Shown: positions 37,987 to 60,629 of the stretch, one piece after another
Position numbering within the stretch: position 1 is the first letter of the stretch
Layout of the letters: every line of letters starts with the position of its first letter
Source: an uncultured Actinomycetota bacterium
GTDB lineage: Bacteria > Actinomycetota > Actinomycetes > Streptosporangiales > Streptosporangiaceae
Assembly: GCA_963805805.1 (NCBI GenBank)
Contig: CAWDVS010000026.1
Coordinates: forward strand, 187,333-251,332
DNA length: 64,000 nucleotides
Reading direction: 5' to 3'
Translations under genes and position numbers: made by a program
Notes under the pieces: generated by a model
Told to the model about the DNA's origin: nothing
What the model saw: the letters and a program-made list of their open reading frames with translations, nothing else
Database searches by the model: none

Positions 37987-38212
37987 GATTCGACGGTAAT
38001 CCGGCGCGCGAGATAGTAACAGAGAACGCCGATCACGTTTTTGCCGGTGATCCTCTGGCTCGCTCCATAACGACGCCAGGATGAGCGGGCGCGCGTCGGA
38101 TGCCGTGCAAGTGTTCCGGGACCAATGGCTCTTAAATTCAGCGGGCGAGCGATACAGCATGGGTGTCTAGGGCGGGCCGGTCCAGCTCGCCATAACTGGC
38201 AGGCGGGCGACA

Positions 38213-43000: not shown

Positions 43001-45712
43001 GCACCGCTCCATCTCCGCATGCACTTGGTGGCGCTGGCGCCCTAGCGTCGGCGCATCGACGTAGCTGCGGCGCACCTCAAGTGCCAGGTCGCAGACTTCA
43101 TGATGACGTCCCTGCGTTGCGGCGACGAGACGGTCGAGGACCGCGAGCCGCTCGTCGGTCATCAGAGCCACCAGCGCGTCGCGCCGGTGCAGCCACTGGT
43201 CCAGGAGCGCCATGATGACCGGCGCGGTGACGTGGACTCGCGCAAGAGACCGGTACATGCGCAGCAGCGCGTGCTCAAGTTCCGGCGTGCGCCGCAGCGA
43301 CGTGACGCCGTAGCGCGCCAGCGCCCGGCGCAGCGGGCTGAGGAAGCGCGCCGGCAGCGCGCTGCGCTCTGGATCGAGAACGGCCAGGTAGGTGAACAGG
43401 TAGTCCTCGGCGCTGTGGGCGTGCTCATCCTCGGCCTCGTCCGGCTCACGCCGTGCCAGCGTGGCGATGTCGGCGAATATGTCGAGAAGTTCTTGCTGCT
43501 GGCCGACTAGGCCCGGGTCGGCCGGGCCGGCAGCTGTATTCATCGCCTCCTGCCTGATGCTCAGCGCCCGCGCGGCATCCTGGTCGACGTCATAGCCGAG
43601 CAAGTAGCCGCGAAGAGTAGCAGGATCGCCATGGCCGTCGGGGTTGTGTCCGTCCGCGCCGAAACCGGTTGCCAGTGCAGCCAGATCGAACCGCTGCCCG
43701 GCCGTGGCATGACGGTCCGGCTGATCCGGTGGCAGCAGCTGCACCAATGACGCGCCGGCCTCCACCTGTGTGTTGACGCGGGCGAGCACGGCGTGGACCG
43801 TACCTGGAAGAGGAGCCGTGATGGAGGTCTCCATTTTCATGCTCTCGACCACGATGAGCGGATCGCCGGCCCTGACCGTATCGCCAGGGGCGACGAGGAC
43901 CTGGACAACGAACGCGGGGGCCGGGGCGCGGACGTGACCTCCGTCGTCGCGGGTGATGACGTGGGGTATGCCGCCTACTTCAATGATGATCCTCGGCCCT
44001 TGTACATCGGCGACGACACGAAGGCGCTGCCCGAGGCAGGTCACGGCGCGCTCGTAGCGGCTGAGGCGCTGGACATTCACGTCTATGACACCCTCGCCGG
44101 TGTCGACTCGGTAGTCACCGCGCTCTAGGCAGTAAACGTGCATTCGGTAGGTGTTGCCGCGCAGGCTCAGCTCGACCGCGTGCCCAACCTTGTCCGGCAA
44201 TTCCGGCCGCCCGCGAGCCGCGGCCGCAAAGAAGTTGGCCTGGACGGCGGCCTGATCCACGTCGGCCGCCTCGATGGCCGCCGCCAGCAGCGCAACGGGG
44301 TTCTGCTGCGGAAGATGCTGCCCGGCGGCGGTAAGCCGGTCGAGCCATTGGTTGTCGTAGCTGCCCGCACGCATCTCAGACCGGTCAACCAGGGCGAGCA
44401 GGAAGGCCTTGTTGGTGGTCCCGCCGTCAACGACGACGACCGATTGCGCAAGGGCGCGGTGCAGCCTGCTCAGTGCCTCGGGCCGGTCCTGGCCCAACGC
44501 GACGACTTTGGCGATCATCGAGTCGAACTCGGGCGCGATCTCGTCGCCCTCCGCGAGGCCGGCGTCGACGCGGATACCCGGGCCGCACGGCGCCCGCAGC
44601 GCGGACACCCGGCCAGGTGCCGGGGCGAAAGCGTGCTCTGGGTCCTCGGCGTTGAGGCGAGCTTCGATGGCGTGCCCGCGGATCAGCGGCGGGCTCCCCT
44701 CCAGCCGCCCACCTTGCGCGATGTGGAGCTGCAGTTTGACCAGATCGAGTCCGGTGGTCAGTTCGGTGACCGGGTGCTCGACCTGGAGCCGGGTGTTGAC
44801 CTCCATGAACAGGGATTTCCGGGTCGCCGGATCGACGAGGAACTCGACCGTGCCGGTGCTCTTATAGCCCGCCGCGGCGCATAGCCGGACAGCCGCGTCG
44901 CGCAGCGCATTCTCTGCGGACTTGTCGAGCAGGGTGCAGGCCGACTCCTCGATGACCTTCTGGTTGCGCCGCTGAACGCTGCAGTCGCGGACGCCGACCG
45001 CCCACACCGCGCCATGGCCATCGGCCACCACCTGAACTTCCACGTGGCGCGCGGCATCCTGCCTGCGCTCGATGAAGACAGTGCGGTCACCGAACGCGTG
45101 GTCCGCCTCGGCCTGGGCGGTAGCGAACGCGTCGCGCATGCGATCGGCGGATTCCACCGCTCTGATGCCCCGGCCTCCCCCTCCAGCAGCTGCCTTCACA
45201 AGTACCGGATAGCCCAGCATTCCCGCGGCGAGCAGCGCGCTGTCGGCGTCATGGACGGGACCTCCGCTCCATGGCACGACGGGGACACCGACGCTCTCAG
45301 CAAGCCGCTTGGCATTCACCTTGTCGCCGAGGAGCCGGATGGTCTCACTGGACGGGCCGACGAAGGTGATACCCGCGCGCTCGCAGCGTTGGGCGAATTC
45401 GGCCGACTCGGCGACAAAGCCCCAGCCCACCCAGACAGCGTCGGCGCGCGCCTCTGCAAGCGCTGTCATCAGCCGGTCGAGATCGAGGTAGGTGCTCTTG
45501 CGGCGGCCGTCAGGGTCGGCGAAGGTCGCCGGGCCGAGCAGCACGGCCTCGCTGGCTTCCCGGACGAACCACGCTGCTGAGTCCGGCTGCGTGTACAGGG
45601 CGATCGTGGCGATAGGGTCGCTGGAGTCCGAGTTGAGCTCCGCGACCGCGGCGATGCAGCGCATCGCCGCTTCTCCGCGGTTGACAATGGCGAGTCTGCG
45701 AATGGTGGTCAC
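39785..45712 (-). CDS. fused multidomain acyl/acetyl-CoA carboxylase (biotin carboxylase - BCCP - central region - carboxyltransferase); 3' ~300 nt of the ORF is doubtful
   Basis: The GTG start follows GGGAG. The BC ATP-grasp domain starts IAIVNRGEAAMRCI.... The biotinyl motif VVESMKMET has its Lys codon at 43835-43837. The C-terminus is a CT domain (...GGAFVVFS...). The last ~95 aa are Arg-rich and antisense to the PPTase gene. Confidence 0.85.
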   Translation of the reverse strand: MTTIRRLAIVNRGEAAMRCIAAVAELNSDSSDPIATIALYTQPDSAAWFVREASEAVLLGPATFADPDGRRKSTYLDLDRLMTALAEARADAVWVGWGFVAESAEFAQRCERAGITFVGPSSETIRLLGDKVNAKRLAESVGVPVVPWSGGPVHDADSALLAAGMLGYPVLVKAAAGGGGRGIRAVESADRMRDAFATAQAEADHAFGDRTVFIERRQDAARHVEVQVVADGHGAVWAVGVRDCSVQRRNQKVIEESACTLLDKSAENALRDAAVRLCAAAGYKSTGTVEFLVDPATRKSLFMEVNTRLQVEHPVTELTTGLDLVKLQLHIAQGGRLEGSPPLIRGHAIEARLNAEDPEHAFAPAPGRVSALRAPCGPGIRVDAGLAEGDEIAPEFDSMIAKVVALGQDRPEALSRLHRALAQSVVVVDGGTTNKAFLLALVDRSEMRAGSYDNQWLDRLTAAGQHLPQQNPVALLAAAIEAADVDQAAVQANFFAAAARGRPELPDKVGHAVELSLRGNTYRMHVYCLERGDYRVDTGEGVIDVNVQRLSRYERAVTCLGQRLRVVADVQGPRIIIEVGGIPHVITRDDGGHVRAPAPAFVVQVLVAPGDTVRAGDPLIVVESMKMETSITAPLPGTVHAVLARVNTQVEAGASLVQLLPPDQPDRHATAGQRFDLAALATGFGADGHNPDGHGDPATLRGYLLGYDVDQDAARALSIRQEAMNTAAGPADPGLVGQQQELLDIFADIATLARREPDEAEDEHAHSAEDYLFTYLAVLDPERSALPARFLSPLRRALARYGVTSLRRTPELEHALLRMYRSLARVHVTAPVIMALLDQWLHRRDALVALMTDERLAVLDRLVAATQGRHHEVCDLALEVRRSYVDAPTLGRQRHQVHAEMERCIDELAAHPSGERLRQLTDRLMWCPQPMRALLRERYRDADATTRIRLLQARTLRYYRIHELAQMRCHAFGPHLICLANYTEDGRDVQLVTGYVSIADLAGFATELRAFLATLPPDQHVVLDIESWRSGEWMDAEQMAAELASLLQRTDFGHMLHRLDITVTTESGPDPEAEPEEHLRTLHFTFRQDDAGFTEDPLYRNLHPMIAERLELWRLSNFTLQRMSSAEDIYLFHAVARENPKDERLIAIAEIRDLTAARDSGGRAIGFPQLEGVLAQALADIRHALSRRPQKQRPLTNRIILYVRPTWDIAQGTWRGVAHRLAPMAAGLGIEKITVRIRTVDAATGEGHDAVLDVENVADSAVSVRVRPVADRPIRPLTEYKQKLLRSQRLGFPYPYELIRTLTPPLNAPADFPAGAFTEYDLDDSSDELMPVDRPYGRNVAGIVVGVISNYTPLVPEGMCRVAILGDPTSGLGNLAEPECRRILGALALARRMRVPVEWFALSSGARIAWDSGTENMDWIAAVLRRLIEFTQSGGEINVVVTGINVGAQPYWNAEATMLMHTRGILVMTPNSAMVLTGKSSLDYSGGVSAEDNFGIGGFDRIMGPNGQGQYWAPTLADACALLLRHYEHTYIVPGEDCPRRAPTSDPFDRDVCLSPHETVAGSDFQRIGDIFSAELNGERKKPFDMRSVMRAVTDTDHEPFERWMRWRDAENAIVWEAHVGGFPVCLIGLESQTLPRTGFVPADGPPSWTSGTLFPQSSRKIARAVNAASGNRPLVVLANLSGFDGSPESMRKWQLEYGAEIGRAVTNFRGPIIFVVVSRYHGGAFVVFSKRLHDGMVTAAVAGSYASVIGGGPAAAVVFAREVSARTDNDPRIVTGREKLAAGLADARADLRHELTVLTQVVRAEKLKQVADEFDSIHDVQRARRVGSVDDIIPAAELRPFIIEALERRLAPTPERPPALAPGAAALRSDIPARAMAAKLCQRPVQPGMRGRQLVQRRDSLQRRRRQELSGCACGKHERSAPPPPAAESEALDGTDLERRPGPLRWRQVFHGHLDRPGIPAQAGAEHFQRALLG

Positions 45713-45745
45713 GCCGGCTCCCGTAGCCGCGAGTAACTCACGTCA

Positions 45746-46545
45746 GCCCCGCATAGCTGCACGTATCGGGCGCTGGAGCTCGTCCGCAATCGCACCGGGC
45801 AGCGCCATGGAACGGTACCCGTCGATGCGGACGAGCACGTCGCCGGCCGAGTCCACGACGCGGCAGTCGAAACTGCCGTCGCTCACCGGATGAACGAGAG
45901 CGAGCAGGGGCCCGTTGCCACGTGGCTTGTGCAATGTCCGGATCAGGTCGGCATGCCAGGGCAGCGCCAGCCGCCCCGCCTGGCCGATGTCCCACAGACC
46001 GACCGTCTGGAAGCACAGCTCGGCCAGCAGTGGCTCGGTCGTCGTCGGATCTCCCGATGGCAGGTGGTCGGGGGGCAGGTGCTCGGCTAGTCGGCCGACG
46101 ACGTGACCGTTGCAGCGCCACGCCTCGTCGAGCACCTGGTAGGCGGGGCCATGGGGGAACACGCGGTAAATGTCGGCATGGCCGACACGCGCGGCAGTAG
46201 CACTGGTGGGGGAGTCATCAATCTCCGGGCGCAGCGCCTGCGTAGTGAGCCGGACGCTGCCGGTGAAATGCGTTGTCCAGCGCGGTGCCTCGTCCCCCTT
46301 GATCATCCTGCTGCAGAGCCATCGCGCAGTCCGCCACGAGGTCGGAGCCATCCCTGCGGACCACCGCCCGAACCGTCACCGTCCGCGGCTCATCGCGGTA
46401 GAACTTCACTGGCGCCATGAAGTCCATTCGCTCAACGCCCGCCACGTTCAGGTCCGGAGCTGCGAGGCTCGCGACTGCGGCGAAGGCCTCGGCGCCCATG
46501 ACCCCGGGGAGCACCGTGATGGATTCGATCTTGTGATCATGCAGG
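45746..46545 (-). other. PKS domain DH (polyketide-type double hot-dog dehydratase)
   Basis: It has FLHDHKIESITVLPGVMGAEAF (HxxxGxxxxP) and a second motif region LLAELCFQTVGLW. A frame break lies at about 46310-46330. Confidence 0.75.
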
Positions 46546-46564
46546 AACGGCTGTGCTAGCTGGG

Positions 46565-48140
46565 TCCAGTGTCGTCTCGACCGTCAGCCCTGAGTAGACG
46601 CCCATGCAGGTAACGGATCCGGCCATCGGTCTGGCCCCGGTCCTGACGGCGGCGATGTCGAGGCCGCCGGCGGGGTCAAGCTCGCGCAGCATCATGCCGA
46701 GCTCTCCAGCGACGACGACCTCACCGCGGAACGGGCCAGCTGTCAGCTCCCGCCTAATCCAGGCGATTCCTGCCTCGGGAGGCAGCATCTCTATCCCGGC
46801 CATCTCCATGATCTTCGGGATGGATCCGCGCGTGGCCATGCCGAGGCCGGCCCACGCGGTCCAGTCGAGGACGATCCCGCGGGTGCCCGGCCGGGTCCGG
46901 CGGAAGCTCGACGTGATCTTGCACAGCAGATCGTTAGCCGCGCTGTAGTCGGTCTGGCCGGCATTGCCGAACCGGGCTGCCACCGAGCTGAAAGCCACGG
47001 TCGCGCCGATCGGCAGGTCGCCGGCCGCATGCAGGAGGTTGAACCAGCCATCGCTCTTCACATCGAATACGAGGTCATATTCGCGGCGGTCCTTGTCGGC
47101 GATCCCGCGGCTGATCTCGATCCCGGCCGCGTGCAGCAGTACGTCGATGCGCCCGTGCCGTTCGCTGATGTCCGTGACAACCCGTGCGACTGCCTCGGCG
47201 TCGGTCAGGTCTAGTGCGTGGTAATGAGCTTCGCCCCCTGCCGCGCGTACGGCTTGTATCGCGGTGAGCGCGGACTGGAGCCGCTCGTAGCGGGAGAGCT
47301 CACGCTCGACCAGCACGGGCGTTGGCCGTTGTCCGCCTGCCTTGAGCCGCTCGCTGATCGTTGCTTTGAACGCATCCCGGTCGGTTGCGAACTGAACCAG
47401 ATCCACGTCGGCAGGATCAGGCTCAGGACTCAGATCGAGCAGGTGGAAGGTGCCGCCGCTGGCGGCAGCCAGGTCTGCGACGATCGCTGACACGATGCTG
47501 CCGGCCGCCCCGGTGACGACGAACACGCTCTCGCTCCAAGGGTTAGCCCGCCAGCTCCGTCGCCGAACGCGACCTCGCGCAGGCCCACGGTCCAACGGCG
47601 GCCGTCTGCCCGGCCGACCTCTACTGCTCCCGGGTCACGCCGGGTCTCCTCGATGAGCGCGTCAGCGAGCGACGCGGTCTTCCTGCTGACGGGGAAGTCC
47701 ACGGCCTTGACGAGTACTTCAGCCCGCTCACGGTGGTAGGCCTTGGTGAAGCCGGTCACGGCACCGCCGAGAGGTGCAATGGCGCCCGTTTCGTCATAGC
47801 CGTGGTAGCCACCGAGGCGGGTGGCCGAGACCAGGAACGTGCCCCGAGGTCCGAGCTGACCCTCGCGATCCAGGCGCCGCACCACCGAATGCAGGTTCTT
47901 CACCCGGCTGGCCAATGCATCGCGCCAGCCGGCCAGGTCGAGTTCCTCAATGGGCGGCTCGGCATCAAGCGCCGCAAGCCAGTACAGGCCGTGCACAGGA
48001 CCGTCCGCGAGCCACGTCCCCATCCGCGCGTCGATTGCGTCGGCTGCGGATCCGGCTTCCAGGACAAGAGCGGTCACGCCAAGCGCACCAAGGCGCCTGA
48101 CGAGCGCGGCCGCGACGCCACCCTTGTCTGCCATCACGAT
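46565..48140 (-). other. PKS domain KR (structural + catalytic subdomains)
   Basis: It has VIVMADKGGVAAALVRRL (pseudo-Rossmann), VFVVTGAAGSIVSAI (Rossmann), and VAFSSVAARFGNAGQTDYSAAN (catalytic Tyr). Confidence 0.8.
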
Positions 48141-48343
48141 GACGCGTTTGGTGTCGTCCAGGGTCACGCCGGTGAGGGAGCACCACTCGATCGGAGGCCG
48201 CAGCACCGGAATCGGAATCCGGCGCGGCAGCGCTTCGGCTGCGGCGATGTCTCCTGTGAACGCGGGCGTGCTCCGAAACGCCGGCGGTGCCTCCTGGGCC
48301 GTCGGGGAGTTGTGGCCAGCCGGGCCGCTGCGAGCTGTGCCCG

Positions 48344-48585
48344 GTCGCGGGCGAAGCCGATGACGTGGGCGAGGGTGGGGAAGTCGCGCAGCCTGAGGTT
48401 CTCATCGCGCGGGATGCCGAACCGTTCCCGCACGGCCGCGAACACCTCGGCCTGCTTGACGGTGTCGACGCCGAGGTCGGCTTCGAGGTCAAGATCGAGG
48501 TCGAGCAGCTCGGCCGGGTAGCCGGTCATCTCGCTGACGATCTGCACGATCTGACTGGTGACCGCGTCAGCGGCTGGCTCGGCTG
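48344..48585. repeat. ACP-encoding tandem repeat copy A (period 344 bp)
   Basis: By eye it is identical to 48688-48929 except for one mismatch (accgcg versus acggcg). Confidence 0.9.
48350..48571 (-). other. ACP3 (PP-binding) with DT in place of DS
   Basis: The core is identical to ACP2. The Thr codon ACC is at 48461-48463. Confidence 0.8.
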
Positions 48586-48687
48586 GTGCTTGCGCGGCCG
48601 GCTCTGCCGGGACTTCGGCGCGGCGGCCGCCCGGTGCCACCGTCGCGGCATGCTGCGCGGCGGTGGCGGGTTGTGTCACCTGTCCGC

Positions 48688-48929
48688 GTCGCGGGCGAAG
48701 CCGATGACGTGGGCGAGGGTGGGGAAGTCGCGCAGCCTGAGGTTCTCATCGCGCGGGATGCCGAACCGTTCCCGCACGGCCGCGAACACCTCGGCCTGCT
48801 TGACGGTGTCGACGCCGAGGTCGGCTTCGAGGTCAAGATCGAGGTCGAGCAGCTCGGCCGGGTAGCCGGTCATCTCGCTGACGATCTGCACGATCTGACT
48901 GGTGACGGCGTCAGCGGCTGGCTCGGCTG
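48688..48929. repeat. ACP-encoding tandem repeat copy B
   Basis: See copy A. Confidence 0.9.
48694..48915 (-). other. ACP2 (PP-binding) with DT in place of DS
   Basis: The core is identical to ACP3. The Thr codon ACC is at 48805-48807. Confidence 0.8.
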
Positions 48930-49018
48930 CGGCGGCGGCGGCCGGCTCGCCCGGTGTCACCGGTGGCAGGCTGCCCGTGCGCTCCGGAGCCGAGCCGTTC
49001 GGTGCGTCGGTCACCTGC

Positions 49019-49246
49019 CCGCTCACGGACGAAGCCGATGACGTGGGCGAGGGTGGGGAAGTCGCGCAGCCTGAGGTTCTCATCGCGCGGGATGCCGAAC
49101 CGTTCCCGCACGGCCGCGAACACCTCGGCCTGCTTGACGGTATCGACGCCAAGGTCGGCTTCGAGGTCGAGGTCCGGCTCCAGCAGGTCTCGTGAATAAC
49201 CGGTCAGGCCCTCAACGATGTCGAGCACGGTTTGCTCGACCAGGTC
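49019..49246 (-). other. ACP1 (PP-binding) with DT in place of DS
   Basis: The sequence is [45 protein letters not shown]. The Thr codon ACC is at 49139-49141. Confidence 0.8.
49031..49172. repeat. ACP-encoding tandem repeat copy C (partial, few mismatches, then diverges)
   Basis: It shares gaagccgatgacgtgggcgagggtggggaagtcgcgcagcctgaggttctcatcgcgcggg... with copies A and B, at an offset of 334 bp from B. Confidence 0.85.
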
Positions 49247-49633
49247 TGCCGGAGACACTGCGGGCACACTCAGAGCAGGCGCCGGAACTGCTGGCGCCGG
49301 CGGTGCTGCCTGCGCCATGGTCGGCACTGGTTCTGCCGCGGGTGCCCGGCCGTTCGCCACCTGGCCGTTCGCCGCGGCGACAACCGCGACGTCGGTAGCT
49401 GCGGTAGCAGGTGATTGCGCGGCTGCGGGCACTACCGCGGGATCGGCAGGGGCCGCGGGTACCTGGACAGGACCATCATCGGTGACGCGCAGGCGGTGCT
49501 GCACGACCTCAAGCCGAGCATCCGGACGACCACTCACCCGCGCCAGCCACGAGCGCCATGTCACGTCGTCGACCACGCGATAGGCGAAGCCCAGGTCGGT
49601 CGGCGCCTGACGCCGGCCATCGGCTGGCGCGGT

Positions 49634-51140
49634 CCAGCGCAGCAGCATCATCGCTATCTGCGAGCCGAAGCCCGCGGCGAGACGAAGCGCATAGGTGACG
49701 GGATAGGCACCGCCGCGCGACAGGTTCAGCTGGCCCAGCTCAGGATCGATCTCGCGGAAATTTGCGACCGGCGGGACGATGCCGGTTTCAAGGGCCTTGA
49801 CGGCCACGACCTCCTCGATGCCCGCGCCCATAGCGTGACCGGTGAAGCCCTTTGTGTTCGTGATGACGACCGAGTCGGCGGCTGAACCGAAAACCCGCCG
49901 CAATGCGTTGATCTCAGCCGCCGCGCTGCCGCCCCGTGCGGGGGTGTATGTCTCATGAGAGACGAACACCGTCTGGCCCGCGATCGCGAGGCGGTCGATG
50001 CCCCGCCGCTCGGCCTGCCGGATGAGATTCTCCATAACCTGGCCGATGTGCTCGACGTCGAGCCGGGTGCCGTGGAACGCGCTGTTGGCGGCCACCACAG
50101 CGAGCACCTCGCAGATCGGGCGGATGCCGCGCTCCCGTGCCGCCGCCGCGGACTCGACGACCAGCGCTGCGGCACCAGATCCGATAATCATCCCGTGCCG
50201 ACGCCGATCGAATGGCAGCGCCGCGTCCTCCACGACGTCGTCGGTCGCCGCCGCGCCGCTAGCCAGGAAACCCGACCCAGTCCAGGGCAGCAACGCGTCG
50301 GAGGCTGCGCTGTCCGCCGACACGACGATCACCCGGCGGCAGCGGCCAGCGCGGATCCAGTCCTCGGCGACCGATACCGCCACGGCTGTGCTGGCGCAGG
50401 CCGAGTTCACCTGAGTGTTAGGGCCACGAGCGCCGATTAGCTCGGCGAACTGCGAGTGCCCCATCGCCAGCACCCTGAACAGGAAGCGGCGGTCGAATGC
50501 GAACGGATGGGTCTCCAGTTCGTGCCGCAGCCCGGCGATGCGCCGGTCCACCTCGGCGGCCGCTTGGTCCGCCGTGTTCATCCGGGCGCGCACATCCGTG
50601 AGCGTCGCCAGCTCGCGTCCGGCGCGAACGGTCCTCCTGGTAACAGTTGATATCGTGCGCGAACGACTCGTAGCCAGGGAACGCCGAGGCGAAAACCACG
50701 CCCGTGTCGTCTCGCAATTCATCGGGCAGGCCCCAGGGGCCGGGCAGCTGAGTCCCCAGCGTGGTGGTGTGGTAATGCCGGACTAGCGGGATGCCCGCGT
50801 CGCGCAGTGCGTCGATGCCGGCGCCGATCGCGAGCCGGGTGCAGGAATCGAGCGCAGCATCGCGGTCGGGATCGAGGCCGAACTCCTCAACCGCATCGAG
50901 AGGGCCGAAACGGCCCGCCAGCTTGATGACGTCGTCCTCGCCCTTGATCATGTCGAAGACCGGGCCGCCGCGGTCGCTCTTTACCAGCCGGGTGATGTGC
51001 TTGTCGACCATCTCACGGCGTATCTGGCGTGGTATCACATCGATGAACTGCTGGCCGGACAGGATTCGGGCGACGTTCTCATCGTCGAAGACGTGCCCCA
51101 CGCCGGGCAGACCGAGCGCGGCCCCGGTAATGACGACCGG
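49634..51140 (-). other. PKS domain KS2: divergent second thiolase-fold ketosynthase with long N-terminal/helical insertion
   Basis: It starts PVVITGAALGLPG. It has NSACAST (Cys codon at 50396-50398), [12 protein letters not shown] (His) and [13 protein letters not shown] (His). A frame break lies at about 50620-50640. Confidence 0.7.
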
Positions 51141-51494
51141 CTCCACGGGTTCAGACGGGTACCGCGACAATGCAGGTGCCGCGTCCACGGCGGGCAACGG
51201 TCCGTCAGCGTCGGCGAGGATGTGACGGCTCCGCTCGAGCAAGTCCGCCAGCAGGTGGCCGAGTTCGGAATAACGATCAGGAGCCACCACTGCCTCGGCG
51301 GCAGGGGGTGCGGGGAGGTTCGGAACGGCACGGGCCGCCTCCGGCCTGGCGGCAGCGGTCGCGGCTGGTGTCGCACCGGGATAGCCGAAGCCGGCCGCGT
51401 ACAGACCGCAGAGGGCGGCGTTGAACGAAGACAGGTCCCCGTTCTTAGGATGGTTGGTGAACAGGGTGACGACATCGTCGTGCTTTGCGCCGAG

Positions 51495-52391
51495 CACGTC
51501 CTCGGCGAATCCAGCCAGCGCACGCTTCGGGCCGACCTCGACGAACACGCGGGCACCGGCCTCGTAGAGGGTGTTGAGGCCCTTCACGAACTGGACCGGA
51601 GAGGCGACCTGCCGGCCCAGAACGTCGAGCATTCGTCCTTCCGCGTCCGGGCCCTCTGCCAGGTAGAACTCCCCGTCGACGTTGGCCACGATCGGCAGCG
51701 TGGGAGCGTGCAGATGCAGCCGTGCCAGCGTCCGCCGGAGCGGCTCGCTGACCGGTGCCACGATGGATGTGTGGAACGCGTGGCTGACCGGAATGCGCAC
51801 GGCCGTCAGGCCCGCCTCCTGGAACGCCAGCATCGCCCGCTCGACGGCCGCAGTGGCGCCGCCGATGACGGCCTGATGAGTGCTGTTTACGTTAGCGACC
51901 ACCACGTAGCCGTCGACCGAGGCCACGATCCGCTCGATCTCCTCCAGCGGGGCCGTGACGGCAGCCATCGCTCCGCGGTCGGCGATCTCCAGGCTGGCCA
52001 TCTCGCGGCCGCGCGCGCTGACTGCCTCGAGCGCCGCGGCGAAGGACAAGGCGCCTGCTGTCACTAGCGCTCCGTATTCACCGAGGCTGTGACCCATCAC
52101 CATGTCGGGCTCGATGCCATAGGCGCGCATTAGCCGGGTGAGGGCAATGTCGGCGGTCAGCACGGCGGGCTGGGTGATCTCGGTCCGCATCAACTGCTGC
52201 TCGAGCTCCGCGACCGCTGACGGGTCATTGCGGTCTACGAATATGTAGTCGGTGAGCGGCCTGCCGAGCAACGGTGTCATCACGCGGTCGGCCTCGGCGA
52301 ACGTCTGCGCCACAATCGGCTCTCTCGCGCGCAGCTCTTCGAGCATGTTGGCGTACTGCGAGCCCTGGCCCGTATAGAGGAAGGCGACCTT
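51495..52391 (-). other. PKS domain AT (malonyl-type acyltransferase)
   Basis: It has FLYTGQGSQY, GHSLGE (Ser codon at 52086-52088) and VSHAFHT. Confidence 0.85.
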
Positions 52392-52856
52392 GGGCGCAGG
52401 GCCGTGGCCAACGAAGATGCCGCGCGCGCGCAACATCTTCCGCATCGCGGCGGTCCCGCTGGTCAGCGCCTGCACGGCCATCGCCGCTTTGTCCGCGAGC
52501 TCGGCAGCGCCGTCGTAATCGATGGCGGCCCGGACGCTGGCCCCGACCAGGGCCGGATCCGGCGGCTGCGGTGGCGGAGCCTCGCCGAGGGCAGCCCGTC
52601 CACGCACATGTGCTAGTTGCGCGGCCACGTCCGCATACGTTTCACCGCCCACCACGAGGGCGCCACGCAGCGGGGCCTTGACCCCTTCACTCGCCGGCGT
52701 GCCTGCGTCCGCTGCGGCCGGGCCGCCGGAGCCCTCAGTCGAGCCAGGGCGAGGATAGGCGGATGCGAGCACCGGAATCCCGGCGCCAACAGTGGCGTGC
52801 AGGTCAGCGCGTGCTGACATCTGCCGCCCTGTTTCGTCGAGCCGGCCAGGTATGTA

Positions 52857-54245
52857 CTCCTCCAGCACGGCGTGGAAGTTGGTGCCGCCGAAGCCGAACG
52901 CGCTGACACCGCCCCGCCGCACTCCCGATGGCGGCATCCGCCACTCGCGAAGCTCTGTGTTCACCCGGAATGGCGAGGCCGGCCAGTCGACGTTCGGGTT
53001 AGGGTCGCGGAAGTTCAGGCTTGGCGGCAGTACCTTCTCATGTAGCGCCATGGTCATTTTGAACAATCCGGCCGCGCCCGCGGCGCTCTTCAGATGGCCT
53101 ACGTTCGACTTCACCGAGCCGAGCGCGATCGAGCCGGGGACGACGTCGGCCCCGCCGAAGACGGCATTGAGGCTTTCGAGCTCGGAGGCGTCACCGACGC
53201 GAGTTGACGTGCCATGTGCCTCGACTGCGGACGCGGTTGAGGGCTCGACCCCGGCGTTGCGCCAGGCACGCTCGATCGCCAGGCGCTGCCCGGCCGGATT
53301 AGGGGCCGTGATCCCCTTGCCCTTCCCGTCGCTCGATCCCGCGATGCCAAGCAGGACCGCATAGATGCGGTCGCCGTCGCGCTCGGCGTCGGCGAGCCGC
53401 TTCAGGACGAACAGCGCCGCGCCCTCAGCCATCACGAAACCGTCTGCGCCTGCATCGAACGGACGTGTCCCCGTCGCGGAGAGCGCTCCGATCTTGCAGA
53501 ATTTCACGAATGCGGCGACATTCATATTGCGGTCCACACCGCCGGCAATCGCGGCATCGAATTGCCCGTCGACGAGCCCCTCTGCGGCGGCGTTGACGGC
53601 GGCCAGGGCGGAGGCACACGCCGCGTCGGTGGTGAAGCTGGGCCCGTGGAAGTTGAAGAGGTTGGCGATCCGGCCTGCCAGGATGCTCGCCAGCTCGCCC
53701 GGCATCGTGTCCTCGTTGATCTCGGGGAACTGGCTCCCGAACGACCGCGAGGTCTCGGCGGTGATCAGCTCGCGGATGTCGGCGGGCAGCCCTGCGAACG
53801 CTGGTGACCTGGCGAGCTCTCTGGTGAATTCGGGAAGCTGGATGCGGAGGTTGCTCGCGTAATGCTTTTCGCCGCCGATCGCGTTGCCGATCACTACGGC
53901 GACCCGCGCCGGGTCGACCTTCCAGGTCGGCCAGCCCGCGTCCAGGAGTGCCGTGCGGGCCGCCGAGACTGCCCATTTCTGGCTGTCATCCATCTGGTCG
54001 CCGACCTTCGGCGGAATCGGTAGCCGCCAGGCGATCGGATCCCACGGGAATTCGCCGACCCACCCGCCGATGCGCGAGTAGGTCTTGTCGGGTGCCCGCG
54101 GGTCAGGGTCGTAGTACAGATCCGGGTCCCACCGGTCCTTTGGGACATCGGTGATGCTGTAGCGGCCTTCGGTGAGGTTGTGCCAGAACACCTCCGCATT
54201 AGGTGCCTGCGGCATGATGGCCCCCATACCGACGATGGCGACCGG
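52857..54245 (-). other. PKS domain KS1 (PUFA-synthase-type ketosynthase)
   Basis: It has VAIVGMG, DRWDPDLYYDPDPRAPDKTYSRIGGW, TTDAACAS (Cys codon at 53616-53618), EAHGTST and SNVGHLK. Confidence 0.85.
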
Positions 54246-54280
54246 CTGCGGCTGGCGTGGAGCGGGCTTGCTTGCAGAGC

Positions 54281-56002
54281 TCATGACGATCGATTCTGTG
54301 TCGGGGGCGGCGATCTGGGTGGCCCGTAGAGGGCGTCAGCGACGCTGTCCATGTCGGCTAGCAGTCCGGCCTGGGCGGCGCGTATGGCGTCCAGGCGCAG
54401 GCCGGTTTCGAAGCCCGCCGTGTCGGCGCCCTGGCTGGCGCCGATCACCCAGCGCAGCCCTTCATGGGCCACTTTGTATGCGGCATTCCGTGCGAACACC
54501 CGGCTCATTGCCGCGAGGGCAGCCGGGTCGAACCGGTGGTCGGCCTTGGCCGGGAGGGCGCCATCGAGGGCCGAAGCGGCGCGTGCAGCGAAGGTGGCGG
54601 CGCACTCCGCGTGGGCGATCAGCTCACCGAGCCGAAGTAGCACGTGCTGGCTCCGAGTGAGGCGGCCGACGCGGCAGGCTTCGAGCACGCCGGCGAGTGC
54701 CTCGCTGGCCAGTGCCGCCGTTCCGGCGCCAACGTCGGCGCGGCGCGCGTGCAGCGCGCGGAGCTCGGCTGCGATCTCGTTGTAGTAGTGCCCGGCGGAC
54801 TTCAGGTGCTGCTGCCAGCGGTCGCGCGCGATCGTCATCTCCATGATCTCGGATGTGCCTTCATAGATCGTGGTGATGCGGACGTCGCGCTTGATCTTCT
54901 CGACCAGGTAGTCCCGGGTGTATCCGTAACCGCCATGCGCCTGAATGGCCGCGTCCGCGGCCAGGTTGCCTGCCTCGGTCGCAAGGTACTTGGCGATGGC
55001 TCCCTCGGTGTTCAGGGCGCCGTTCTCGCCCTGACCCGCGTCAATCCGCGCGGCCGTGTACTCGATGTAGGAGCGGGCGGCCTCTAGCAGGACAGCATGC
55101 GGGACGATGAGCTTGTGCGTGTAACCCTGCTTCTGTGACAGCGGCGCACCGGCCTGGATGCGCGTAGTCGAATAGGCGATGGCGCGGTCGAGCGCCGACC
55201 AGCCGCCGCCGAGACCGAAGGCCGCGACCGTAAGGCGCGTGAAGCCGAACACCATCTGTGCCTGCACGAGTCCCTGCCCCTCGACCCCGCCGACGAGGTT
55301 CTCCGCAGGCACGAAAGCGCCATCGAGGAACAACGCCGCGGTGTTGGACAGGCGGATGCCGTGCTTGTCCTCGGGCCGGTTCTGGGTGAAGCCATCCGTG
55401 CCGCGCTCGAGAACGAACCATGATGGACCGCCCGGGGCCCTGGCCAGGATGGTGTACATGTCGGCGATGCCGCCGTTGCTGATCCACTGCTTGCGGCCGG
55501 TCAGCCGGTATCCGATGGTCTGCCCGTCTTCGACCACAGGTGTCGCGGTGGTCTTCAGCGCGCCGAGGTCGCTGCCTGCCTCCGGTTCGGTGGCGCCGTA
55601 CGCATAGAGGAGTCCGTGCTTGGCGATATCGGCCAGCCACCTGCTCTTCTGTTCTGGGGTCGCGCCCACGAAAATCGGATCGCTGCCCAGAGACGTGGCA
55701 AACACGCTCGTGGCCAGACCGAGATCAAGGCGAGCCATCTGCTCGCAGATCCGGTAGACATCGACGGTGTCACAGCCCATCCCGCCGTATTCCTCGGGAA
55801 TGAACAGCAGGTGCACGCCGAGCTCATCACTGCACATCGCTCGGACCAAATCTTCCGGGCACGCGTCATCGTGGTCGAGCTCTAACTGGCGCTCCTCCGG
55901 CATCGCTTTGGTCACGAATTCCTTTATCGTGTCCAGCGTCATTTTGAGGGTCTCGGCGTCGATACCAGTATCGGCGCGCTCTGTCACGGCGGGCGTCAGC
56001 AC
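54281..56002 (-). CDS. acyl-CoA dehydrogenase family protein with ~190-aa C-terminal extension
   Basis: It has [23 protein letters not shown] and [10 protein letters not shown] motifs. The GTG start lies 9 nt after GAGGAG. The stop overlaps the PKS ATG (ATGA at 54281-54284). Confidence 0.85.
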
Positions 56003-56711
56003 GAAAAATCACTCCTCGGCATCGAACGTATCGCTATCAATCGCAGCCAACAGGGCCATTGGTCCTTCGTATTGGCCTCGGCATTTTCGTGATCTTGGGG
56101 GGTTGGCGGCCTGAAGTTGCGGCTGGCCGGCGTTTTCGGCCGCCGATTGTGTCTGGTGGCCCGGCTGTCGGCGGCGGAGAACAACCGCAGCCGCAGCTTG
56201 CGTGGTCCCAGCGGCGGGCGGTGCCGGGCAGGGCGAGCATCGCGATCCAGGCCAGCAGCCACGCGCCAGCGCGACGATCTCGCCCGGAGCTGGTTCTGGT
56301 CGAAGCCGTGCAGCGGCAGGCTGCACCCGACCGCGACTCAGCTTCCGCAGTTCAGCAGCGACTTCCCGGCAGTATTCGCCGTGCTGGCGCCGGAGCCGGC
56401 GAGTCCGAGCCATGACTGCGTTGGCAGTTGCGAGTACCGCGGCTCGCGAAGAGTCCGTTCCGCGCTGCGGAATCCGCCCGCGAAATTGCCGATAGACCCC
56501 CGAAAACGATTCACGCCGGGGCGCGAAGATCATTTGACAATACTGTCTTGCCTGGCCGATGGAGCCCCTTACGGAATCAAACCGTAGATCTTCTCCCTTA
56601 CCATGGGACTCTGGCCGTCTCTATTATCGCAGGCAGCACTCTCAACAGCGAGAGCGCGAGCACGTCCTGGCACTGTAAGTCTCAGACAGCCTGTTACGAG
56701 GGAGGAGGCTC

Positions 56712-57248
56712 ATGCGCGAGATCACTTACGCGGTACAAGGATTTCTGACAGTCCGCAGGGACTCCTTGCGCGTGCCTGTGAGCGGGTCGCTAGCAGTCCA
56801 GGCTGACCCGGACTCGGGCCTCTTCACGGGCGACCTCGTCCTCGACCAGTCCACGATCAGCCGGATAGTCCTTGGCGCCAGCCTGTACAGCGCTACCGTC
56901 CAGATTGTGCCCGACTCTCCCGTCATCGGCAGAGTCGACCACGAGGGCCAGCTCTTCGCGACAGTCACGGTCGACGCGGTCATAGCTGCTGTCCACGTCG
57001 CCGGGCGGACGTTGCTCGGTGGCGCCTCATGCCGGACCGCCACTCACGCCGTCGTGCCGTTGCGCTCCAAGCCCGGCTTCCACCTGGAGCAGGGCGGCCG
57101 CCTGGCCGGCCGGTACCACCGGCCGCCCTTTACTGGCTGCGGGTGGAGCACTCCGCTTATCAACCTGCTTGTCGCCGGCCCGGGGAACGCCGTTGTCATT
57201 GACCTCGTCCCGGCCGCAGGGTGTCCCGCAACGCCTCAAGCGCAGTGA
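56712..57248 (+). CDS. hypothetical protein (178 aa, no recognised domain)
   Basis: The ATG is preceded by a strong SD (GAGGGAGGAGG). The composition is protein-like and beta-rich. The 3' end overlaps the convergent SDR gene by ~50 nt. Confidence 0.55.
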   Translation: MREITYAVQGFLTVRRDSLRVPVSGSLAVQADPDSGLFTGDLVLDQSTISRIVLGASLYSATVQIVPDSPVIGRVDHEGQLFATVTVDAVIAAVHVAGRTLLGGASCRTATHAVVPLRSKPGFHLEQGGRLAGRYHRPPFTGCGWSTPLINLLVAGPGNAVVIDLVPAAGCPATPQAQ

Positions 57249-58251
57249 AGCGGGGTGCCCAGCCCAGTTCGCGCTTCGCCCGGGTAGTGTCCATGATCGC
57301 CGGATGGCTGGCCGCCTCCACCCACTGCGCGATGGGCGGAAGGAACGGCAGGGCGGCGAACGCCCGGGCCGTGAACTGGGCCGGGCCCACGGGCAGGGGC
57401 AGCGGGAGCATGCCGAGTTCACGGGCGATGTCGGCGGCGGTGACGATCCCGTCGGCGGCGATGTTGTAGGCACCGGGCGGTCCGGCCGCGACGACACACC
57501 GCAGCAGTGCCTGCCCCGTGTCTTCCTCGTGGACCAGCTGCAGCGGCAGCGCCGGCACCAGCACCGGCAGTGGAATCTGGCCAGCCAGCCTGCCCAGACG
57601 GCGGGCCAGCGGAGCCAGCGGCCCGGGCAGCTGGTCCTTCGCGCCCACAGCGTGCGGGCCCACCACGATTGACGGACGCAGCAGGTAAAGGGCTGGTCTG
57701 GGCCCTGACCCAGCAGCGGTCTCGTCCCGCAACAGGGTCTCGAGCTCAGCCTTTTCCTGGGCGTAGAACAGCCGGGCGGCGGGCCGCACCGGCCAGTCTT
57801 CGGTCATGCCCACAGGGTTATCGGGGTGGAAGCCGTAGGCCGCCACTGAGGACGAATAGACAAAACGGCGGGCCCCGGCCGCGGCCGCGGCACGGAATGC
57901 GTTCAGCGTGCCTTCGACGTTGACCGACCGGATCGCCTCACGTGACGCGGCGCCGGTAACCAAGAACGCCAGATGCACCACCACGTCGGCATCGCCGAAC
58001 GCGGCACGCAGGGCGCCGGGGTCGCGGACATCCCCGCGGTGGTACACCATCTTCGTCCAGCCGTATGCGACCGGGTCGAACGGGCGCCGGGCAATGCCCA
58101 CGATTCGCGCCACGCGGTCGTCTGCCTGGAGCAGGGGCATCAAGCCGAAGCCGAACGTACCGGTCGGACCGGTTACCGCGACTGTAAGATCCGTCTCTCT
58201 GGCAGGCACCGAATCGGCTACCTCCCTGGCCCTAGTTGTCTGGCACAGCAT
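57196..58251 (-). CDS. extended SDR, NAD-dependent epimerase/dehydratase / 3beta-HSD-like family
   Basis: It has VAVTGPTGTFG (GxxGxxG) and a YAQEK (YxxxK) catalytic pair. The start is taken at the ATG at 58251. Confidence 0.8.
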   Translation of the reverse strand: MLCQTTRAREVADSVPARETDLTVAVTGPTGTFGFGLMPLLQADDRVARIVGIARRPFDPVAYGWTKMVYHRGDVRDPGALRAAFGDADVVVHLAFLVTGAASREAIRSVNVEGTLNAFRAAAAAGARRFVYSSSVAAYGFHPDNPVGMTEDWPVRPAARLFYAQEKAELETLLRDETAAGSGPRPALYLLRPSIVVGPHAVGAKDQLPGPLAPLARRLGRLAGQIPLPVLVPALPLQLVHEEDTGQALLRCVVAAGPPGAYNIAADGIVTAADIARELGMLPLPLPVGPAQFTARAFAALPFLPPIAQWVEAASHPAIMDTTRAKRELGWAPRFTALEALRDTLRPGRGQ

Positions 58252-58472
58252 GACACCGTGCCCGCCGGTGCTGCAGGGTCGAAGGTCCTGGCAGCTACTA
58301 CCAGGAGCGAAAGCTCCTGCCGCTAACCCGGCGTGAGGGGCCGCCTCCGCCGCGCCGTGTGGAGCGAGGGCGGATGCGCGAGCTGGTACCTGGACGCCGA
58401 TGGCGTAATCGTGCACTATGGCCGGGATTCAGCACGCACTCGGCGCCCGCGCCGCGGCGATTACGTGATCCG

Positions 58473-59363
58473 CTAACGATCCTGGGCGCCCGCCATCAGG
58501 TCCGGGTCATGCGCTTCGCTGTCCGCCCAGACGCGGTCCAGGAACTCGCTGATCTCGGCGGTCAGCCGGGCAGGCCGCAGCCACAGCTCAGCGAACGTGC
58601 GGGTGCGGATCAGCCGGGCGTCAGGAAGCTGCCGCGCCAGGTTTCTCGCATCACTGAATGAGTGGATCAGGTCGATCCCGTGTCCCAGCACCAGCGCCGG
58701 AACGGTGATCGACCGGCGCTGGTCGGTGGTCGGGGCGATGGGACCGAGCAGAACACCGTGCAGCACGGCGGCGATTTCGTCGGGATCCGACCTGGCCGCA
58801 CTGATGAACGAGCCGAACGGGCCGAACGGGGATAGCGGCAGGAGAGAGGCGGCCCGGGATACCACTCGCAGCGGGACACGGGCGTAGTGGACGCCGAGCA
58901 GGAGCGGCAGGAACACGAGCGCTGCCGCGGGGACGGCCCACTCCAGCACCGGCATTTCGAGAATCAGGCCGCGGACCCTCTCGGGTGCCTGCACGGCGGT
59001 TAGCAGGCTCACATTGGTGCCCAGAGAAACACCCCCGAGCACCACCTGATCTACGCCGAGTTCGTCCAGCAGGCACAGCACCTGCCCGGCGTACAGGTCC
59101 ATCCGGTGGGCTCCCGCATGGCGGGGCTTGTCGCTGCGGCCATGGCCCAGCAAGTCGAGCAGCACGACCCGGTTGCCCTGCGCCGCCAGGGTCCTGGCCA
59201 GGCCCCGGCTGAGGTTAGCGTCCAGCAGCAAACCGTGCAGCCACACGATCACCCGGTCGCCCGAGCCGTAGACCTCGTAGCCCAGCTGGTACTGACCGTA
59301 GGACAACGAATGCTTGGCACCCTCGGGAGCTTGTTCTGGATTGTGCTCCTTATCCAAGCTCAT
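58473..59363 (-). CDS. alpha/beta-fold serine hydrolase (possible thioesterase/lipase)
   Basis: It has VWLHGLLLD (oxyanion region), a GVSLG nucleophile elbow and a late HGIDLIH. The remainder of the 753-aa ORF is antisense to the KASIII gene. Confidence 0.8.
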   Translation of the reverse strand: MSLDKEHNPEQAPEGAKHSLSYGQYQLGYEVYGSGDRVIVWLHGLLLDANLSRGLARTLAAQGNRVVLLDLLGHGRSDKPRHAGAHRMDLYAGQVLCLLDELGVDQVVLGGVSLGTNVSLLTAVQAPERVRGLILEMPVLEWAVPAAALVFLPLLLGVHYARVPLRVVSRAASLLPLSPFGPFGSFISAARSDPDEIAAVLHGVLLGPIAPTTDQRRSITVPALVLGHGIDLIHSFSDARNLARQLPDARLIRTRTFAELWLRPARLTAEISEFLDRVWADSEAHDPDLMAGAQDR

Positions 59364-59495
59364 GGCGGTATCGACAGGTCGGATAGCCGTCTGGGAGTGA
59401 CGTTCGCCCCTATCGCCAGGCACCCGGAGCCGGAAAACTCTCATCCCTAACGATAACGCCAAGCGCGCGCCGCGATCGGTGCACGAGGGGGACCA

Positions 59496-60629
59496 ATGGC
59501 CGGAACCCGCGGCACCCAGGCGAGCCATTGGCTGGCGCTCGAGTCGCGCGATTCTGCTGGCATCTGGGGCTGCCGGATCGAGAGCGTCGGCGTCAAACTG
59601 CCCGCAGGGAAGCTGACGACCAAGAATTTGATGAACCAGACCAAGCACCGCACCAAGATCCAGCTCGAGCGGCTGACGGGCATCCATGAGCGTTATGTCG
59701 TAGGGCCGGGCGAGAACTCCTTGACCCTGGCCGCCGGGGCGGCGCGCGACTGCCTGGCTCATTCGCAGCATCAGGCGCCCGACATCGAGATGCTGATCAG
59801 CACCAGCATCACCCGCTCTACGCCCCGGTCCTGGCAATCCTTCGAGCCCCCGCTCAGCCTGCAGGTCAAGCAGGCGATCGGCGCCACGCAGGCCGTGAAC
59901 TTCGATCTGTCCAACGCGTGTGCGGGCATGCTGACCGGGGTGTTCGTCCTTCAGGACCTCATCGCCCGAGGCGAGATCAGCTGCGGCATGGTGGTTTCCG
60001 GCGAGTACATCTCCCACCTGAGCTGGAACGCGGCGAAGCAGATCCGCTCGCTGTTCAGCAAGCAACTGGCATCGCTCACGCTCGGTGACGCGGGTGCCGC
60101 CGTGATCGTGGAACGGGCACCCGTTGGCGGACCGGGCATCGATGTCATCGGCTTCACTACTCTCGCCGAGCACAGCCGCCTGTGCCTCGCATTCCCCAGC
60201 ACCGCGGGGCCGGGCGCCCAGATGTACACCAAGTCCAGGGAACTGCAGAAGGTGGCCATAGAGGACATGGCGCCGCTGGTCGCCGAGGTGATCGGCGAGG
60301 CCGGCATAGCCCTGGATGACATCGACTACCTGATCCCGCATCAGACCTCGGCCAGGGCCATCCGCCAGGGCGCGCAGGAATTCGCCCGGCGCCTCGGGGC
60401 CAAGCCGAAGCACATAGTTGTCAACCTGGAGGAGTACGGCAACACGTCCTCGACAACGTTGTTCGTGGCTCTCCACAAGTACCTCGTGGAGCAGCGAATG
60501 CACAAGGGAGACAAGGTGATGCTGCTGGCACTCGCCTCCGGCATCGAGATCGTCATCGCGGTTTTTACCGTCGAAAGCCAGGTGGACCACTATGGGCGCA
60601 CGGATTGTCGCCGCCAGCGCGCTGACTAG
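59496..60629 (+). CDS. KASIII (FabH-like) condensing enzyme with complete Cys-His-Asn triad
   Basis: It has FDLSNACAG (Cys), YLIPHQTS (His) and EEYGNTSSTT (Asn). The ATG lies 5 nt after GAGGGGGA. Confidence 0.85.
   Translation: MAGTRGTQASHWLALESRDSAGIWGCRIESVGVKLPAGKLTTKNLMNQTKHRTKIQLERLTGIHERYVVGPGENSLTLAAGAARDCLAHSQHQAPDIEMLISTSITRSTPRSWQSFEPPLSLQVKQAIGATQAVNFDLSNACAGMLTGVFVLQDLIARGEISCGMVVSGEYISHLSWNAAKQIRSLFSKQLASLTLGDAGAAVIVERAPVGGPGIDVIGFTTLAEHSRLCLAFPSTAGPGAQMYTKSRELQKVAIEDMAPLVAEVIGEAGIALDDIDYLIPHQTSARAIRQGAQEFARRLGAKPKHIVVNLEEYGNTSSTTLFVALHKYLVEQRMHKGDKVMLLALASGIEIVIAVFTVESQVDHYGRTDCRRQRAD

Follow-up and report, generated by a model that had tools for sequence, protein, structure and literature searches.

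A PfaA-like synthase with two ketosynthase domains in an uncultured actinobacterium: a probable member of the widespread Type R lipid-synthase cassette

Shulse and Allen sorted Pfa-like gene clusters into Types A to T in 2011 (PMC3098273). Type R comprises one pfaA homologue with the domain order ketosynthase (KS)–malonyl acyltransferase (MAT)–chain-length factor (CLF)–acyl carrier protein (ACP, three to six copies)–ketoreductase (KR), followed by a gene for a phosphopantetheinyl transferase (PPTase); in Koribacter versatilis, an acetyl-CoA carboxylase (ACC) gene lies between the two (PMC3098273). The hosts listed at the time were Acidobacteria, Chloroflexi and Elusimicrobia, with no Actinobacteria among them, and the product was uncharacterised (PMC3098273). 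Our literature searches found no later functional work on a Type R-like synthase, and nothing relevant was returned for KS-AT-KS or KS-AT-CLF strings or for hglE-KS with a carboxylase and a dehydrogenase. In a 2023 survey, more than 92% of PfaA-type KS domains from metagenomes belonged to no clade with a known product (PMC10308959). Here we describe a PfaA-like iterative type I synthase encoded at positions 45743–54284 on the reverse strand of a 64,000-nucleotide stretch of contig CAWDVS010000026.1 (hereafter the window); the host, an actinobacterium, lies close to Streptosporangiaceae metagenome bins. We consider it probable that the gene belongs, as an ordinary example, to a widespread cassette of four genes (for an acyl-CoA dehydrogenase, a PfaA-like megasynthase, a single-chain acetyl-CoA carboxylase and a PPTase) equivalent to Type R, for which we infer an iterative mechanism with two KS domains.

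Pfam searches of the translated pieces revealed the order KS1-AT-KS2-ACP-ACP-ACP-KR-DH, where AT is an acyltransferase and DH a dehydratase, in a protein of ~2,840 amino acids after correction of seven frame changes. Unless stated otherwise, all features of the cassette given here lie on the reverse strand. KS1 (52845–54248; PF00109 6.6e-65, PF02801 5.8e-36) is of the PfaA type and contains the motifs DRWDPDLYYDPD...DKTY, DAACAS, EAHGTST and SNVGHLK, with the Cys codon at 53618 and the His codons at 53216 and 53096. Among NCBIfam models it matches PfaA (TIGR02813) with 413 bits over model positions 7–467, and its PDB matches are KS domains of type I polyketide synthases (PKSs). The AT (51489–52382; PF00698 2.8e-45) carries GHSLGE (Ser codon 52088) and HAFHT (HAFH at 51782), motifs that are of the malonyl type by sequence; in a synthase orthologue, this domain is matched by the FabD model TIGR00128. 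KS2 (49631–51143) gives weaker Pfam matches (PF00109 1.8e-11, PF02801 4.2e-08 and a short ACP_syn_III match). Its translation contains PVVITGAALGLPG, DKHITRLVKSDRGGPVF, an ETHPF segment, NSACAS, SHETYT and TGHAMG; the Cys codon is at 50398 and the His codons are at 49957 and 49837. ACP1 (49037–49234; PF00550), ACP2 (48709–48897) and ACP3 (48365–48553) share the motif DLGVDTVKQ. The KR (46850–48224; PF08659 2.5e-24) consists of a structural subdomain at about 47536–48224 and a catalytic subdomain at 46850–47523; the catalytic Lys, Ser, Tyr and Asn of the K...S...Y..N pattern are visible in its translation as a whole. A PKS-type double-hotdog DH (45746–46650; PS-DH 3e-10) with a HDHKIESITVLPG motif completes the chain; in intact orthologues, both PKS_DH_N and PS-DH match at this position.

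The motifs and domain order quoted in a preliminary description of the locus were thus all recovered from the translations, and its placement of KS2 on the same polypeptide as KS1 is borne out. The piece 50418–54284 carries KS1 and AT, the piece 48911–50722 carries the weaker second KS and ACP1, and two further pieces each hold one PP-binding domain. The fusion of AT and KS2 is visible in the window itself, because the 1,288-residue open reading frame (ORF) 50418–54284 encodes AT together with the first third of KS2 (from EPVVITGAALGLPG, nucleotide 51143). Intact single ORFs with the same Pfam order are present in three cultured isolates (L017, 2,611 amino acids; L034, 2,623; L050, 2,499), and most of 80 related loci have a continuous synthase ORF of 2,500–3,500 amino acids. 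The number of ACPs may differ from three, since relatives range from one to six. The ACP-linker units at 48338–49168 are repeated in tandem with a period of 344 bp (2.5 copies, 91% matches); this period is not a multiple of three, and the frame shifts with every unit.

The locus shares with Type R (Koribacter versatilis, Solibacter usitatus, Roseiflexus spp. and Elusimicrobium minutum) a single pfaA homologue in which a KS-like domain lies between AT and the tandem ACPs, which are followed by KR. In the window and its intact orthologues, Pfam reads this order as KS-AT-weak KS-three PP-binding-KR (and DH). The shared features extend to the neighbours: a carboxylase gene directly downstream of the synthase, as in Koribacter, and a PPTase gene after it, an order found in 61 and 33 loci, respectively, including the Terriglobia loci L079 and L080. 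The absence of pfaB, pfaC and pfaD is likewise common to both: tblastn of the window and of 81 loci found no PfaD-like or NMO-type enoyl reductase (ER), and the window ORFs include no further KS-CLF-DH2 gene. Acidobacteriota (Terriglobia) loci have the same synteny and 60–63% identity over KS1-AT. The cassette therefore appears, at the level of sequence and synteny, to correspond to the Type R secondary-lipid synthase, and the view of the preliminary description that the arrangement could not be assigned to a described synthase is not supported, this layout having been published in 2011. The paper that defined Type R calls the middle domain a CLF and does not mention an intact Cys-His-His, an upstream dehydrogenase, a C-terminal DH or Thr carrier sites (PMC3098273).

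Nor is the architecture unusual, as had been supposed. It occurs in at least 543 species-level genomes, and a profile search at E <= 1e-30 yielded 691 clusters at 50% identity, whose proteins are typically 2,500–3,600 amino acids long with KS2 at residues ~1,000–1,600. From the matching species genomes, about 80 loci were fetched, and the distant family was surveyed through 103 diverse representatives; the protein-homologue search returned only proteins of less than 1,000 amino acids. Hosts are mostly Actinomycetota, which also dominate the top 80 loci, along with Acidobacteriota/Terriglobia, Gemmatimonadota and one betaproteobacterial bin. Intact orthologues are found in the cultured strains Paractinoplanes durhamensis NBRC 14914, Planobispora spp., Spirillospora sp., Kineosporia sp. 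and Mycobacterium sp. Marseille-P9652.

Compared with PfaA (TIGR02813; KS-MAT-ACPn-KR-DH), the window protein shares the PfaA-type KS1, the malonyl-type AT, tandem ACPs, the KR and the PKS-type DH. It nevertheless lies outside the family as modelled: the intact orthologue L034 scores 850.3 bits in three stretches against a cut-off of 1,010.1 bits, KS2 with its ~500 residues stands between AT and ACP1, and genes for PfaC (KS-CLF-DH2) and PfaD (ER) are missing. Polyunsaturated fatty acid (PUFA) synthases likewise work iteratively, with an Sfp-type PPTase of their own and two catalytically active KSs per system. In contrast to these, the second KS of the window is FabF-like and placed in cis between AT and the ACPs instead of belonging to a PfaC KS-CLF pair; the FabA-type DH/isomerase domains are absent; an acyl-CoA dehydrogenase takes the place of PfaD; and the carrier sites are Thr, not Ser. 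Without a FabA-type dehydratase/isomerase, it is not apparent how cis double bonds would be formed. We rejected a myxobacterial-type pfa operon (Pfa1 ER, Pfa2, Pfa3), since the synthase is flanked by genes for an acyl-CoA dehydrogenase and a fused carboxylase and not by genes for PfaD or PfaC.

The divergent KS2 domain retains a full catalytic set. Its Cys (N[AS]ACAST), both His residues (FVSHETY and FTGHAMG) and Lys (NTKGF) are invariant in 79 of 79 loci. Among aligned representative domains, the Cys is present in 223 of 225 and the second His in 211 of 211; nearly all of the 103 representatives, down to ~35% identity, keep Cys, His, His and Lys, and the Phe of the GFG loop is conserved across the family at 35–96% identity. 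In known CLF and KSQ domains the active-site Cys is gone, and CLFs usually have Gln in its place. The claim that KS2 is not a CLF is therefore upheld in the strict sense of the term. Like KS2, the CLF (KS-beta) of type II PKSs and of PfaC is a second, divergent KS-like domain beside a conventional KS in an iterative synthase; however, a CLF is adjacent to, or heterodimeric with, its KS, whereas AT separates KS2 from KS1.

By sequence, only the C-terminal ~290 residues of KS2 align to known enzymes. The best PDB match is FabF (1j3n, 1e-24), and the best NCBIfam model is FabF TIGR03150, at 143.7 bits against a cut-off of 493.75 and over model positions 140–406 only; no PfaA, PKS or CLF model of NCBIfam matches. 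On these scores, KS2 resembles FabF yet is not a member of the TIGR03150 family. To compare folds, we used an AlphaFold model of KS2 from P0001, a sequence 96% identical to the window (63 sequences, single chain), with pLDDT mostly above 90 over residues 1–560. It contains a long helical hairpin (helices 159–188 and 196–212), encoded at roughly 50480–50660 in the window, in agreement with the helical insertion predicted earlier ahead of the Cys. The best Foldseek match is Pseudomonas aeruginosa FabF (8qer_B; E 1.6e-25, TM 0.87 over all 413 target residues, 22% identity), and the actinorhodin KS-alpha chain is also among the matches. In the model, KS2 has a whole thiolase fold like that of FabF, enlarged by ~100 residues of insertions. 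With FabF/KAS II it shares the fold, the Cys-His-His triad, the catalytic Lys and the GFG loop; it differs in its low identity and score, in being embedded in a megasynthase and not free-standing, and in the extra residues, which include the 55-residue helical hairpin, plus a C-terminal subdomain of roughly 55 residues. This last element (P0001 residues ~505–560, window ~49466–49630) is a small, confidently predicted helix-plus-hairpin unit with conserved RTLRV/W motifs that could serve in docking or dimerisation; a linker of low complexity joins it to ACP1.

Other identities for KS2 were set aside. A PfaC-type KS or CLF is not favoured, as neither sequence nor fold search puts such chains on top. 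A KAS III or OleA-like enzyme was rejected because the ACP_syn_III match is confined to a stretch of ~37 residues at the Cys, and because KS2 has the triad Cys-His-His instead of Cys-His-Asn. The PDB chain 6riw_A, labelled 'ORF10', matches KS1 and is outside the 60 best sequence matches of KS2. Judged by its sequence, KS2 has all the features expected of a working condensing enzyme of the FabF kind, which makes the published CLF label misleading, and it is probably an active second condensing domain of the synthase.

The first gene of the cassette encodes an acyl-CoA dehydrogenase (ACAD)-family flavoprotein of 573 amino acids (54281–56002; Pfam Acyl-CoA_dh_N/M/1), whose stop codon overlaps the synthase start codon (ATGA). 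It has a C-terminal extension of roughly 180 residues, giving it a VLCAD-like length, and in the PDB it is closest to ACADs of the Bcd/MCAD type. The gene is directly upstream of the synthase in 70 of 78 loci, the remainder lacking upstream flank; absences of cassette genes are generally explained by short flanks. Pfam detects no ER domain in the synthase, neither in the window pieces nor in the intact orthologues.

To relate the dehydrogenase to enoyl reduction, we compared the window gene with L083 (6307–7968), L084, L085, P0157 and P0256. P0157 combines NMO (a PfaD-type ER)-KS-AT-KS2-ACP2-KR-DH-PPTase in one chain, and P0256 has the order NMO-KS-KS-AT-KS2-ACP6-KR-DH. In the ER-fused P0256 and P0216, where upstream DNA is readable, no dehydrogenase gene is adjacent, whereas the ER-less distant relative P0128 has a 553-residue dehydrogenase immediately upstream. 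In the four distant loci with surroundings that were read, the dehydrogenase gene and an N-terminally fused PfaD/NMO-type ER never occur together, which suggests non-orthologous replacement of the reductase. Because these two ER-fused members lack an adjacent dehydrogenase, ER-less P0128 has it and PfaD is absent from the window and the 81 loci, we propose the dehydrogenase as the reductase stand-in: it probably supplies the enoyl-reduction step for the synthase. The remark in the preliminary description that there is no ER consequently stands for the polypeptide, but probably not for the cassette as a whole.

All three ACPs of the window have Thr at the phosphopantetheine position, where the PF00550 family has a conserved Ser at the start of helix II. 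This Thr aligns with Ser36 of Escherichia coli ACP and, among carrier proteins of solved structure, with the D-S of the nearest ones (PigH and Streptomyces coelicolor ACP). In the related loci (L002–L081), the motif LG[VI]DTVKQAE has Thr in 202 of 202 instances; the 103 diverse representatives (within P0127–P0266) have 275 Thr, 9 Ser, 1 Gln and 1 Val, with Ser concentrated in three proteins. Since the Thr is conserved, sometimes swaps with Ser and is co-inherited with a dedicated or fused PPTase, it looks like a working attachment site. Literature searches on Thr carrier sites and S36T found no report of a natural Thr attachment site in carrier proteins. The Thr carrier sites and the replacement between dehydrogenase and fused ER are apparently unreported.

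The remaining cassette genes lie downstream. A single-chain acetyl/acyl-CoA carboxylase (39785–45712; Pfam order BC-BCCP-central-CT) starts 30 nucleotides after the synthase. The Sfp-type 4'-phosphopantetheinyl transferase (226 amino acids; 39392–40072 on the forward strand; PF01648 3.5e-14) is convergent with it. Its occurrence in 33 loci is limited by flank length, and in about 27 of the 103 distant relatives the PPTase is fused to the C terminus of the synthase. The link between the synthase family and the carboxylase seems old and conserved, because the distant ER-fused relative L084 (20133–27321) also adjoins biotin-dependent carboxylase genes: after its synthase come genes for a biotin-protein ligase, a 1,941-residue fused carboxylase and a BioY biotin transporter.

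The assignment of the locus and the function proposed for it have to be weighed against several points. The correspondence to Type R is drawn from domain order, neighbours and the 60–63% identity to Terriglobia loci, and we infer the activity of KS2, the division of cycles and the role of the dehydrogenase from sequence. The CLF label given by Shulse and Allen (PMC3098273) would imply that KS2 is a non-condensing partner, serving a structural purpose, setting chain length or decarboxylating malonyl-ACP for priming, while KS1 performs all condensations. The much greater divergence of KS2 (PF00109 1.8e-11 against 6.6e-65 for KS1; 144 bits for FabF against a cut-off of 494), its large modelled insertions and the extra KS-like domain beside KS1 in P0256, a sign of flexible use of such domains in the family, would all fit that role. 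Yet the conservation of Cys, both His, Lys and the GFG Phe at 35–96% identity is hard to explain without catalysis, the best sequence and fold matches are FabF and KS-alpha instead of CLF chains, and tandem KS-CLF pairs have no AT between their members; we regard a non-condensing KS2 as unlikely. The role of the dehydrogenase faces its own difficulties. Acyl-CoA dehydrogenases normally oxidise, and reductive use usually needs an electron-transfer flavoprotein, which is absent from the cassette; the exclusivity with the fused ER is drawn from two ER-fused loci with readable upstream DNA. If the enzyme were a tailoring desaturase or unrelated to the pathway, the cassette might make a conjugated polyene or another unsaturated polyketide, as would befit a polypeptide with KR and DH but no ER. 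The enediyne enzymes PKSE have the order KS-AT-ACP-KR-DH with a PfaA-like KS, and ACADs that oxidise carrier-bound substrates exist: prolyl-ACP dehydrogenase (4irn) is among the PDB matches and RedW/PigA are among the NCBIfam matches. However, distant members that lack the dehydrogenase gene have a fused PfaD-type ER, which argues for a reduction step in the pathway. A dedicated carboxylase and several ACPs in tandem are characteristic of lipid synthesis at high flux, and the conserved surroundings of the cassette include no accessory genes for enediynes or polyenes. An unsaturated product is accordingly quite unlikely in our view, and an enediyne PKSE identity was considered and set aside. 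The carrier domains raise a further objection to a functional synthase: all of them have Thr where Ser is expected, and by textbook rules could not be armed. Mutants of E. coli ACP with Thr in place of this Ser are not known to be modified.

The state of the gene in the window also bears on whether the synthase is functional. Instead of one ORF, it consists of seven or eight stop-free pieces in three frames, as the preliminary description anticipated in suspecting a frame error. Alignment of the intact protein of the 92%-identical relative L003 to the window places the seven frame changes at ~50615, within 48900–49036 (the linker preceding ACP2), near 48688 (before ACP3), within 48309–48321 (after ACP3) and at 47535 (in the KR), 46559 and 46318, the last two in the DH. 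The change at 50615 is an extra C (ACG-C-GAG) inside KS2 and not at a domain boundary, that at 47535 is a 1-bp deletion and those at 46559 and 46318 are 1-bp insertions. All four, which lie outside the ACP linkers, are isolated 1-bp indels relative to the 96%-identical contig L001, and P0001 (96% identity), L002 (95%) and L003 (92%) are uninterrupted at 50615. Seven breaks within 4.3 kb (50615–46318) is a high density and, with the first 3.7 kb of the synthase and the entire dehydrogenase gene clean and several of the indels outside homopolymers, it could mean that the breaks are real and that the synthase here is a decaying pseudogene or is made as several separate proteins. Against this, each piece is stop-free in its own frame and 63–92% identical to the intact L003 protein, with no in-frame stops or deletions, and L001 is broken at other positions, its carboxylase gene included. 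The non-triplet period of the ACP repeat is typical of repeat consensus errors, and the nearest relatives are long-read metagenome bins. Elsewhere in the window, a GH65 glycoside phosphorylase gene on the reverse strand (35594–38160) is split into overlapping ORFs for its N domain (37288–38160) and its central and C domains (35594–37588). The carboxylase ORF is ~130 residues longer than those of the isolates, where orthologues have 1,844–1,847 residues; its over-run (39785–40200 region) crosses the PPTase gene on the opposite strand, and indels relative to L001 fall at 40096–40453. The tail is thus probably read-through after an indel, with the true stop likely near 40170. As the GH65 gene and the carboxylase tail look like further cases of single-base indels, the consensus of the window appears error-prone in general. 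The frame breaks are most likely consensus or assembly indel errors, and a recently inactivated gene or a set of separate proteins is a minor, improbable alternative. Programmed frameshifting or a split gene was rejected, given that the ORF is continuous in close relatives and the breaks differ from one assembly to the next.

Four ORFs within 56009–61515, upstream of the cassette, are lipid-related on paper. The ORF at 56009–56533 (174 amino acids) has no Pfam match and is matched in none of the 81 loci. An NAD-dependent epimerase/'male sterility'-type reductase of the short-chain dehydrogenase/reductase class (57196–58416) and a 753-residue protein with a C-terminal alpha/beta-hydrolase domain (58473–60734) each accompany the cassette in only 2 of 81 loci, and both were dropped as parts of the system. 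The fourth is a KAS III-like ORF at 60592–61515 on the forward strand.

For the mechanism of the cassette, we propose that the carboxylase would make malonyl-CoA, that the PPTase would arm the tandem carrier domains and that AT would load malonyl units. KS1, of the PfaA type, and KS2, of the FabF type, would both catalyse decarboxylative condensations. In PUFA synthases, KS-A and KS-C divide the labour (PMC13291983); by analogy, KS1 and KS2 would most plausibly split the iterative cycles, either by chain length or between initiation and elongation. KR and DH would process each beta-keto group, and the upstream flavoprotein would reduce the enoyl intermediate, replacing the PfaD-type reductase that is fused in distant relatives. 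A long acyl chain, for the most part saturated, would be the expected product, and cis double bonds would not be anticipated because a FabA-type dehydratase/isomerase is missing. For the family as a whole, with its several hundred 50%-identity clusters in many phyla, we tentatively suggest a self-contained de novo lipid synthase. Its carriers might be phosphopantetheinylated on Thr by a co-inherited, often fused PPTase; two competent KS domains of different ancestry, PfaA-type and FabF-type, might work on one chain; and the enoyl-reducing partners might be interchangeable, either an ACAD flavoprotein in trans or a PfaD-type enzyme in cis.

The architecture is not new, having been in the literature since 2011, and it is common in soil Actinomycetota and Acidobacteriota. 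The interest of the gene lies instead in the questions it raises at the level of the family, for it points to a large group of lipid synthases. A cassette that carries its own malonyl-CoA supply, PPTase and reductase and is spread across phyla probably makes an ecologically important lipid. If the carrier Thr is really modified, this would widen what PPTases are thought to do. Because intact orthologues exist in cultured strains, these questions are directly testable.

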